Positions 62,001-64,000 of a DNA stretch of 64,000 nt are shown here, piece by piece. Origin of the DNA: a virus (taxonomy: Duplodnaviria > Heunggongvirae > Uroviricota > Caudoviricetes); the IMG/VR virus record IMGVR_UViG_2537562172_000006, one strand, 5' to 3'. The position numbers are program-made. Every line of letters starts with the position of its first letter. Position 1 is the stretch's first letter.

Positions 62001-64000
62001 GGTAAAATGCAGATCATCATCGTGATGGCACGTTAACGGCTTAATCAGTCGCGCACGTTCTGCCATTTCCAGCAATGCTTCAACGCTTCCGGCAATTGCA
62101 CCATCCGGCAGGTGGTAATTACGCACTATGCGCCCGTTCTCCACATGGACCAGTAGCTGCCCGGTAAATTTCTCGTCAAACTGAATGCGGTGAAGGTCGG
62201 TAAGTGACAGGTTAATCATGGCGTACCTCCTGGCGAATACGGGCAGCGAATACCATCACGCAGCCATCAGGAGATTGCTGGCGGGCTTCCTGTTCGCTGG
62301 TGGCCTCGATGTGAATCACGCGCGGTTGTGCCGTGCTCAGGGCGATAAAACGCCAGATGTATTTATTCAGGTTGTGCGAGTCCCGCCCTTGCGGGTGTGT
62401 GGTATGATTTATCATAGCTACCTCGATACTTTCGCTATCGTTGGTGGTTAGACGCCCTGGTACTGTTCCCGCAGTCCGGGGCGTTGTTTTTTTTGCAATG
62501 GTAAGTACAATGGTAATTACCGTGTAACTATAGTAATTATGGGTAATTACCATGTCAACACCATTAGAAAAACGATCGCCACCATACCAAATGCGGCTAC
62601 CAGAAGAATTTAGGGCACAACTTGAGGAGGCAGCCAAAGCAGACGGCGACACCTCATTAGCTACCTGGATTAAACGAGTGCTCCGCAAAGAATTACAACA
62701 GCGAGGCATCGTGCCAAAAGGTTGACGATTAAGGGTAAAATCAAGAATGTATATTTTTGGAAAATGGTTACTGATTGCAGCAACATTGACACTTTTATAT
62801 TTTTTTGTAGCAGGGCTACAAAATGGTGAAATTGAGGTCAAGCGCGACCATACCTCTAATGATATAGGTAAAGTTACATTCAGCTTAAAGTAGGAATAGT
62901 TGCAATGTTGTACATAAGTCCAGGTTAAGTTGATCAGCACCGAGCAACCAGAAAAAATCGTATCAGTCACGCCACCAGCAAAATTTTTTGCTTTCCGGAC
63001 AGCGTGGCCAACGACATTTTGCAGCAAAATATTCTGCATTTCTGGTGTGCTGTAGTAACGGTGATCTGCGCCTTCACTCTGTGCGACCACAACGCTATAA
63101 TCTGCCTCGTAGACAGTAAGCAATATGGCGCAGTAGGCTATTCGTTCACAAAGGCGCTCCGGCAACGGGGCGCTTTTTCTTTTTGTAACGGTCAGAGCGT
63201 TACACATGGCTGTTTTCCTCCATGCGACGGGCTAACCAACGCTGCGAAAGACGAATTAATTCAGCTTTCCGCTGGTGGTAGCCCTGGCCTAACTCAATCA
63301 GCGTGATATTGCTCTGCTCAAGGTAAGAAAGGTGCTCAAGCTGCAACGTGCTCATGTGGTCGCGTGGTTCGCCTGTGATGCCGTTCGCCTGCGCCCACTG
63401 TTTTGCAGTCATGCCACCCAGCACGATACGCGCCAGCATATTGGCTTCCGTGGTGTAGTGGTGCTGGAACGTGTTTTTACCCAGTTCAGCCCGGTACGCC
63501 TCCAGCGCGGCACACATTGGCTTAAAGTAGCTGGCAACGGTGATACGGGCTTTCAGTTCCCGGCGTAACGCTGCGGAACGCACTGGCGCTACCTTGTGTA
63601 GCTCCTCCTCGCATTTGATAAAGTACTGGCGAACGGCGCGGCCCTGTTCGGTACGTTCGACCATCGCCAGTTCTTTCGCCATGTTCACTGTGATGATGTA
63701 CTCAAGAGCGGTTTGCTGGCGAGATTTTGCGCTCACCGGATCGGGTCGGCTCAAATATTCAACAACCTCATAATCCACGCCTTCCGTGAACCCGTATTCT
63801 TCAATGCGCCCCTTGATCCACGAACGGAAAACGCGCCCTACACCTAACGCCTTATGTAACGCTCTGGCGCTAACAATAGTGGTTTCACGCCCACCAATAA
63901 CGCCGGAAATAACCGGAATAATTTCAGCGAAATTTTGCAGATTCTGTTTTTCAGGCCGAACGAAGCCCCGCCCCTGTACAGGCGTATATCCAGTATTCAT

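Follow-up and report, generated by a model that had tools for sequence, protein, structure and literature searches.

A putative ribbon-helix-helix repressor gene, paired probable operators and a predicted cis-antisense RNA at the replication operon of a Gram-negative phage satellite

The last 4 kb of the 64,000-nucleotide stretch of viral DNA analysed here (IMG/VR record IMGVR_UViG_2537562172_000006, "the window" below) hold a phage satellite of the phage-inducible chromosomal island (PICI) type, with the order int-alpA-antA, a small gene, and icd-like-DUF4222-primase. We describe its control region, in which a small repressor gene with operators and a structured RNA element lie in front of the replication operon, and which probably acts as a conserved dual-control switch guarding that operon in a very common class of phage satellites. 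Positions 59.7-64 kb of the window are a 100% match to an ~11-kb island of Escherichia coli ETEC1747, located between smrA and abgR. In that island, the integrase is followed by an AlpA-type helix-turn-helix gene, an AntA/AntB antirepressor, a 782-bp unannotated stretch and the icd-like gene, and then by a hypothetical gene, DUF4222, a D5-type primase, ProQ/FinO, PerC, DUF2213 and others. The control region lies within the 782-bp stretch, where the 'Bro' zone meets the replication zone in terms of the integration, 'Bro' and replication zones described for PICIs (PMC10111431). The same layout is found in the O157:H7 island (L002) and in the prototype EcCICFT073 (L077). This fits the plan of Gram-negative PICIs, in which an int-alpA pair leads to a replication module with a primase and on to late or accessory genes, over ~10-15 kb and at a chromosomal att site; the region is the control region of such an island in E. 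coli. According to the list of open reading frames (ORFs), the replication operon comprises the icd-like gene, a 121-aa ORF, DUF4222 and the D5-type primase, with overlapping start and stop codons. A first-pass annotation of the same DNA had already pointed to this region; its observations proved largely real and its interpretation half right. The coordinate 62212, with which it opened the region, is the stop and not the start of the icd-like gene (62212-62415, minus strand).

We fetched 66 loci for comparison, one genome per species, and based the counts of promoter and RNA elements on 41 non-identical loci. The region upstream of the repressor gene is collinear across the 66 loci. With the 782-nt control region as query, about 1,500 of 5,426 complete E. 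coli genomes gave at least a partial match, and the weaker matches, in the spread listed, mostly cover only the first ~80 nt of the query, which correspond to the antisense-RNA region. In the downstream gene, the opening ~10 codons are kept whether its product is Icd-like, a 118-aa protein or a primase. Because these codons are conserved across unrelated first genes, the regulatory module extends into the first gene. The features of the control region are as follows, in order of position.

62212..62415, minus strand: icd-like gene, 67 aa, first cistron of the replication operon (NCBIfam phage_ICD_like, 71.6 bits; PGAP annotation of the identical ETEC1747 locus; ORF list)
62400..62408, plus strand: TGgTATGAT, extended -10 of the predicted antisense-RNA promoter, in icd-like codons 3-5 (TAnnnT conservation)
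62415..62494, plus strand: predicted ~80-nt cis-antisense RNA, complementary to the icd-like start codon, the GAGG ribosome-binding site (RBS) and ~65 nt of the 5' untranslated region (UTR) (fold, covariation, strand asymmetry, covariance model)
62423..62439, plus strand: stem-loop I, CGATA/TATCG (helix 1, 3 of 4 pairs compensatory: GC 11, AU 10, CG 2)
62446..62452, plus strand: near-invariant single-stranded spacer GGTTAGA between the stem-loops (invariant or nearly invariant alignment columns)
62452..62494, plus strand: stem-loop II (62452-62484) and U-tract (62485-62494), predicted intrinsic terminator of the antisense RNA (terminator scan; helix 2, 10 of 13 pairs compensatory, 95.2% paired)
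62500..62511, plus strand: imperfect palindrome GGTAAGTACA overlapping TACAAT (62506-62511), possible weak third operator (TAnnAT conservation; the copy itself not above chance)
62512..62521, no strand: putative operator O2, GGTAATTACC, over the predicted start sites of both face-to-face promoters (chance test, positional conservation)
62530..62535, minus strand: predicted -10 of the leftward promoter, TACTAT (promoter scan, 10 of 12 matches; -10 at 16-18 bp in 39 of 41 loci)
62542..62551, no strand: putative operator O1, GGTAATTACC, filling the -35/-10 spacer of the leftward promoter and abutting the repressor ATG (chance test, positional conservation)
62552..62725, plus strand: gene for a 57-aa ribbon-helix-helix (RHH) putative repressor, Arc-like and YlcI/YnfO-related (homologues, alignment, substitution counts, AF2, Foldseek, hhalign)
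62553..62558, minus strand: predicted -35 of the leftward promoter, TTGACA, formed by the repressor codons ATG-TCA-A (present in 40 of 41 non-identical loci)

The 57-aa ORF, in which the first-pass annotation had recognised an Arc/Mnt pattern and which PGAP/RefSeq leave unannotated in the loci examined, is a real gene under purifying selection. Compared with the O157 copy, the DNA is 81% identical and the protein 97%, with 31 synonymous versus 2 non-synonymous changes; the comparison with ETEC1748 gave 9 synonymous changes and no non-synonymous one. The ORF is conserved in related islands, with 63 homologues at 55-116 bits in four bacterial orders (Enterobacterales, Pasteurellaceae, Orbales (Gilliamella) and Aeromonadales (Oceanimonas/Aeromonas)), most of which are labelled hypothetical and a few Arc-family or HicB-like. 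The family alignment has 22 invariant columns, including a conserved YQMRL strand and a DGD-x-SLATWIKR turn and helix, in which the turn reads DGD-(T/S)-SL. The AlphaFold2 (AF2) model contains an extended N-terminus and helices at residues 18-31 and 36-50 (mean pLDDT 75.7); together with the alignment it displays the N-terminal β-strand and the two helices, with a G-x-S/T/N turn before helix B, of the RHH fold. The top 50 Foldseek matches in the PDB were essentially all RHH proteins (AmrZ, P22 Arc, ORF56, NikR, CopG and RHH antitoxins), each with a weak E-value. By hhalign, the family matched the YlcI/YnfO-type proteins, its positional counterparts divergent from icd-like in EcCICFT073 and many other E. 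coli PICIs, with 91.7% probability (E = 8e-7), and P22 Arc with 26% probability, though with the β-strand aligned in register. Judging from these comparisons, the 57-aa protein is an RHH protein of the Arc/MetJ superfamily and forms a sister clade of YlcI/YnfO, since its score misses the cut-off of that family. A PDB sequence search with the repressor profile was discarded as a compositional artefact: its top matches were designed helical repeats, and AmrZ appeared at E = 0.5.

Upstream of this gene, the first-pass annotation had counted four palindromes, the last of which touches the ATG. Two of them, O1 and O2, are perfect copies of GGTAATTACC. Two perfect copies were found in the 64 kb against 0.04 expected, none of 100 shuffles reached two, and both their position and their 30-bp distance are kept in ~40 non-identical related loci. 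The two imperfect copies failed the tests of chance and conservation, and a set of four operators was rejected. When one mismatch is allowed, GTAATTAC occurs 25 times in the window versus 21.8 expected, which is no excess over chance. The imperfect copy at 62532-62541 lacks conservation and falls on the leftward promoter's -10; that at 62500-62509 is shared by only some of the relatives, in which it overlaps a TACAAT -10-like hexamer.

The promoter scan revealed a near-consensus leftward promoter for the icd-like operon, with TTGACA (62558-62553), a 17-bp spacer and TACTAT (62535-62530). The TTGACA is maintained in 40 of the 41 loci although Ser, which it partly encodes on the repressor strand, has six codons. 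O2 follows closely on the -10 and covers the predicted start site of this promoter (~62523). On its other side, O2 is abutted by a TAnnAT hexamer in every GGTAATTACC-type locus, and the window's version, TACAAT (62506-62511), is the likely candidate for the -10 of the repressor's own promoter; two promoters would therefore stand face to face with overlapping start sites.

Other RHH alleles are accompanied by other palindromes at the same places, namely two copies of TGGTACGTACCA (33 bp apart, the second touching the ATG), three of GTGTTGAACAC or three of TGTGCGCACA. In EcCICFT073, a motif containing GTGGCCCAC, read by eye, is repeated twice in the same interval. The cognate repeats thus lie over core elements of the promoter, and a change of repressor allele goes with a change of repeat. 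Such covariation is a classical signature of an immunity repressor, to which the repeats would serve as binding sites. The two perfect palindromes are very probably the operators of the RHH protein on the divergent icd-like promoter. The protein repressor proposed in the first-pass annotation gains support from their arrangement, as they bracket the -10 of the divergent promoter and vary with the repressor allele.

The second element of the region is an RNA. On the plus strand, the 9-bp stem ACGCCCTGG/CCGGGGCGT (62452-62460 with 62476-62484) is followed by eight T, as had been noted before, and the earlier remark that it looks like a terminator on this strand was correct, though treated as incidental. 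The small hairpin reported near the GAGG Shine-Dalgarno (SD) sequence, CGATA/TATCG at 62423-62439, is also present and conserved with covariation; its loop holds an anti-SD CCUC/CUCC in most relatives. The window version (62415-62496) folds with a minimum free energy of -38 kcal/mol (z = -5.9), and 14 of the 21 pairs predicted in the consensus fold show compensatory changes. In the covariation test, 13 of 17 tested pairs covary, and 93.7% of the cells are paired versus 80.5% in shuffles and ~40-63% with the partners slid; none of 500 shuffles matched the observed pairing or covariation on any measure. Reading the alignment on the plus strand gives 62 G·U pairs, compared with 4 on the minus strand, where pairing falls from 93.7% to 81.8%, indicating that the structure belongs to the plus strand.

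In 40 of the 41 loci (background 14%), a TAnnnT hexamer precedes the spacer motif by 39-48 nt, with a TGn extension in 11, and it sits in codons 3-5 of whichever gene comes first, even unrelated ones. The predicted antisense promoter thus has a -10 in 40 of 41 loci, without a clear -35. The element is positioned opposite a translation-initiation region, and its stem-loops and intrinsic terminator are under structural selection, as in cis-encoded antisense regulators. The plus-strand element is best read as a predicted cis-antisense RNA of ~80 nt that spans the first cistron's translation-initiation region. A covariance model (R1) from 30 training sequences found every held-out locus at 49-89 bits, including YlcI/YnfO-type islands and EcCICFT073, and gave no match in phage P4. 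No Rfam family matched the antisense RNA in the window, L002, L003, EcCICFT073 and the related loci scanned. Within the literature searched, it appears to be a conserved and previously undescribed RNA that is not in Rfam. The RNA module stays the same when the repressor alleles beside it are unrelated, and the two recombine separately.

Some islands carry two copies of the RNA element (L071 at 2494-2580 and 3364-3450; L037-L041 at ~2630-2717 and 3848-3933). In L071 one copy lies by a YlcI/YnfO-type gene and the other by an Arc-like gene, as in tandem or mosaic control modules. ETEC1748 (L070) combines an 'AGCCAT'-type 5' half and a different first gene with the window's stem-loop II and repressor, with a recombination joint relative to the window near 62440-62446, between stem-loop I and the spacer; ETEC1748 also has a G-to-A change, by which a U·G pair becomes U-A on the plus strand. 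The R1 model also matched weakly at 6807-6886 of the window (plus strand, 31.9 bits), between two minus-strand phage tail genes. This site was rejected as a second module copy, being a generic bidirectional terminator preceded by GGTCAGAAA.

We consider it probable that the region is a lysogeny-type PICI switch with two layers, an RHH repressor with two operators and a cis-antisense RNA. The 57-aa repressor, transcribed rightward, would bind O1 and O2 and thereby shut off the icd-like/DUF4222/primase operon, and occupancy of O2 over both start sites would also autoregulate the repressor. The ~80-nt RNA would start from the extended -10 in icd-like codons 3-5 and end at the hairpin and U8 terminator. 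Being fully complementary to the icd-like SD, start codon and leader, it would block translation on leaky transcripts. An untranslated first cistron would expose the operon to Rho, and polarity on the replication genes would follow; loss of icd-like translation may be expected to cause such polarity because the cistrons of the operon overlap start to stop. The same logic applies in P1 c4-icd-ant, with a translational block of icd and Rho polarity downstream.

Several points weigh against this reading. All Foldseek E-values for the 57-aa protein are ≥0.4, as is usual for a 57-residue monomer model. The protein stays below the Pfam Arc gathering threshold (PF03869; 16.8 versus 20.4 bits, E = 0.0064) and below the NCBIfam YlcI_YnfO_N cut-off (NF041551; 20.1 versus 30 bits). 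For the repressor's own promoter, no -35 is convincing, and the consensus scan missed it. In one sub-group of loci, the U-tract that follows stem-loop II is not continuous, and the promoters and transcript ends of the module are predictions. Finally, the published model of E. coli PICIs relies on activation by AlpA, without a known repressor (PMC6092414).

An alternative explanation for the plus-strand hairpin and U-tract is an insulating terminator that protects the repressor promoter from stray rightward transcription, with no regulatory RNA made. The terminator is indeed canonical and sits directly upstream of the repressor promoter region. However, there is no plus-strand gene upstream for >10 kb from which such transcription could come, and in 40 of 41 loci the -10 keeps a constant spacing even though the first genes that contain it are unrelated. 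A bare terminator would also have no need of the further stem-loop with its anti-SD or of the near-invariant spacer, which are both conserved, with covariation. We regard this explanation as unlikely. The structured RNA could also be the 5' leader of the repressor mRNA, starting inside icd-like, with the terminator acting as an attenuator that meters read-through. Its location directly upstream of the repressor gene on the same strand would fit, as would the lack of a good -35 in the repressor's own promoter. On the other hand, the conserved TAnnAT abutting O2 in all GGTAATTACC-type loci would give the repressor a promoter of its own, and the RNA module stays constant beside unrelated repressor alleles, from which it recombines independently, making an attenuator improbable.

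The first-pass annotation had instead expected a C4/CI-family RNA, encoded in the icd-like sense leader and processed as in P1/P7 immI and P4, next to an Arc-type repressor, and had proposed a covariance-model scan for C4. In favour of such an RNA, an Icd-like gene comes first as in P1 immI, and C4 and isrK matches occur in some Gram-negative PICIs (PMC10111431). We ran the scan, and neither C4 (RF01695) nor isrK/seqA (RF01394) matched in the window at the gathering threshold, nor at E≤10 over 62100-63300; none was found in L002, L003 or EcCICFT073 (L077) either. The same tool recovered both from phage P4 as a positive control (C4 74.9 bits, isrK 60.8 bits), and the identity of the RNA with C4/CI or isrK was rejected. 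Encoding in the sense leader fails as well, for the conserved helices pair on the plus (antisense) strand and its 62 G·U pairs would be C·A mismatches in the sense leader. C4-family membership is thus refuted, and the whole combination is highly improbable. What remains of the RNA-control layer is a structured RNA that appears to exist, though on the other strand and outside the C4/CI family. A match to sar RNA (RF00262; 18.2 bits versus gathering 43, E = 1.4) covered the terminator hairpin only (model positions 34-63), and homology to sar was rejected.

Two Pasteurellaceae relatives (L030, 3507-3723; L057, 3510-3741) carry C4 and isrK matches on the operon strand, 280-500 nt downstream of the same RHH/antisense module, suggesting that a P4-type CI/seqA system and the RHH/antisense module can be stacked in one leader.

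As improbable as the C4/CI reading is a role of the RHH protein as the antitoxin of an autoregulated toxin-antitoxin (TA) or exclusion cassette in which a 48-aa membrane peptide would be the toxin: RHH antitoxins with palindromic operators are frequently encountered, some homologues are labelled 'HicB family' and the peptide is hydrophobic, but it occurs in ~10 E. coli genomes with 2 database relatives, the downstream genes differ in every lineage, and the operators bracket the divergent promoter core instead of lying only upstream of the RHH gene. The ORF and the end of the repressor transcript are located as follows.

62747..62893, plus strand: 48-aa hydrophobic ORF, coding status unsupported (in the AT-rich replacement 62726-62929)
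63150..63187, plus strand: intrinsic terminator, likely end of the repressor transcript (terminator scan; conserved in L003, L070 and CFT073)

The hydrophobic ORF that had been singled out as a possible exclusion or toxic factor is present, whereas its functional link to the module is unsupported. It is an orphan and is not conserved with the module: the segment 62726-62929 (34% GC) is present in ~10 of 5426 E. coli genomes, and the only relatives among 5.8 billion database proteins are two from E. coli. Versus ETEC1748 it shows 5-6 non-synonymous against 3 synonymous changes. For an orphan in an AT-rich replacement with near-neutral substitutions, a TA or exclusion role was rejected. No conserved partner ORF, as a type II TA system would have, lies downstream of the RHH gene among the loci compared. 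In the O157 (L002), EC5 (L003) and CFT073 islands, the repressor is followed by a small basic ORF (MTDKELTKTLSPARKRRRRK...), which is replaced in the window, and in other genera unrelated cargo holds the position. The repressor-alpA interval looks like a cargo hotspot; in Yersinia (L021), the N-terminus of an ORF resembles MazE/AbrB-type antitoxins by eye.

Among known systems, the closest functional analogues of the switch may be CopG with RNAII in pMV158 and CopB with CopA in R1, followed by P22 immI; we do not claim membership in any of their RNA families. In the plasmids, a small repressor (RHH in the case of CopG) acts on the promoter of the replication operon, and the initiation region of a first cistron that is translationally coupled to the next is covered by a short antisense RNA of two hairpins, which has a promoter and a terminator of its own. 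Unlike there, the repressor gene described here is divergent and not co-transcribed, and the element is an integrated satellite and not a plasmid. In sequence, neither CopG nor CopA nor RNAII is similar to the elements described here, CopG being a weak structural neighbour only. P22 immI resembles the region in its RHH repressors (Arc, Mnt) on face-to-face promoters and in sar, an antisense RNA of ~70 nt over an RBS. It differs in its target, an antirepressor and not a replication operon, and the similarities to sar and to Arc (26% in hhalign) are weak.

P1/P7 immI and P4 CI have in common with the region an Icd-family ORF placed first behind an RNA regulator, where a block of icd followed by Rho polarity would be expected. 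However, C4/CI RNAs are products of the sense transcript that target repeated sites, whereas the RNA here lies on the opposite strand and has no similarity to C4 or isrK. FinP/FinO of F-like plasmids also includes a two-stem-loop cis-antisense RNA over the 5' UTR and RBS of a master gene. The island encodes a ProQ/FinO-domain protein (58840-59382, minus strand; Pfam ProQ, 84.5 bits), next to a PerC-family regulator (58556-58843, minus strand). A FinO-like chaperone beside a FinP-like antisense RNA is suggestive, but within the available flanks the gene is limited to near-identical islands; ProQ/FinO as an obligatory partner of the antisense RNA was rejected, and no similarity to the FinP RNA was found. 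As to YlcI/YnfO (NF041551, Pfam DUF3950), which has no assigned function, its members occupy the same position with allele-specific palindromes at the same promoter.

Another property of the region concerns the minus strand.

62416..63207, minus strand: stop-free frame in phase with icd-like, 264 codons from ATG 63207 (0 stops versus 10-19 in each other frame)

From 63207 down to 62212, this frame is open for 331 codons, and it runs opposite the repressor gene, both operators and the gene of the antisense RNA. In seven of eight E. coli islands, which contain at least 5 different intervening sequences, the icd-phase frame has no stop over 469-1562 nt, which is the entire interval up to alpA or antA, while the other five frames have 3-43 stops each; given the base composition, the probability of zero stops is between 2e-4 and 5e-12. 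In EcCICFT073 the frame stays open for 367 codons, from an ATG that follows the alpA stop by 53 nt. In Oceanimonas, Tatumella, Buttiauxella and an uncultured Enterobacterales, the corridor starts at the stop of the upstream co-oriented gene or ≤30 nt from it. The loci in which the frame is stop-free include L002, L003, L070-L074, L077, L004, L007, L054, L058 and L059, and islands whose first gene is not icd-like mostly lack such a corridor. The absence of stops in the icd-phase frame is real and unexplained.

The PGAP 'long' and 'incomplete' Icd-like annotations derive from this frame. Nevertheless, its amino-acid sequence drifts neutrally (6 non-synonymous versus 2 synonymous changes; 9 versus 4), and across the repressor gene the plus frame is better conserved than the minus frame; selection therefore appears to act on openness and not on a protein. 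The compensatory changes in the RNA helices, together with the neutral drift, argue against a conserved protein encoded by the leader on the minus strand. The terminator scan predicted no intrinsic terminator on the minus strand between antA and icd-like. One tentative explanation, which we hold to be possible but on balance doubtful, is that selection keeps the corridor translatable, and that AlpA-driven read-through transcripts carry ribosomes into icd and the coupled replication genes, bypassing Rho and the antisense RNA. Since the antisense RNA would block only initiation at the icd RBS, continuous translation from the integration zone would evade both the RNA and Rho, while transcripts that start at the local promoter would remain subject to both the repressor and the RNA. 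If true, this model would reconcile the picture of an AlpA activator without a repressor with a hidden repressor module, and the corridor would be a case of selection for an open frame and not for a protein.

Gram-negative PICIs, which are widespread, act as vehicles for virulence and anti-phage genes. Fillol-Salom et al. 2018 (PMC6092414) described AlpA as an activator and left open the question of a repressor in these islands. Icd, YlcI/YnfO, HicB and ProQ have been listed as accessory genes (PMC13612085), and a PerC-like protein is the subject of PMC11773190. Our literature search found no described PICI repressor, PICI antisense RNA or YlcI/YnfO function, although its coverage was incomplete and an earlier description is possible. 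The module sits between the integration and replication zones and is present in the experimentally used prototype EcCICFT073. If our interpretation is correct, it would supply the missing maintenance and immunity circuit of Gram-negative PICIs, assign a role to the uncharacterised YlcI/YnfO (DUF3950) family, contribute an RNA family absent from Rfam and flag a 57-aa gene that automated annotation by PGAP passes over in the loci examined.

Downstream of the repressor gene, a promoter-like site on the plus strand (63073-63101, TTCACT-17-TATAAT) is located ~50 nt upstream of the strong terminator (63150-63177 and T-run), and the pair (63073-63187) has been kept in L003, L070 and EcCICFT073. It represents either a second small RNA of ~80 nt or the mere terminator of the repressor transcript; Rfam returned only sub-threshold, terminator-like matches for this segment (ctRNA_p42d, sau-6072). 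The Rfam int-alpA RNA motif (RF02996) occurs between the integrase and alpA in L003 (9212-9279) and L058 (7180-7249), a position that falls past the end of the window for the island studied here. Elsewhere in the window, Rfam matches at gathering level were obtained for RalA (44394-44572, 215 bits), sok (30953-31128, 120 bits), FnrS (48869-48986, 135 bits) and sRNA-Xcc1 (5468-5552, 70 bits).

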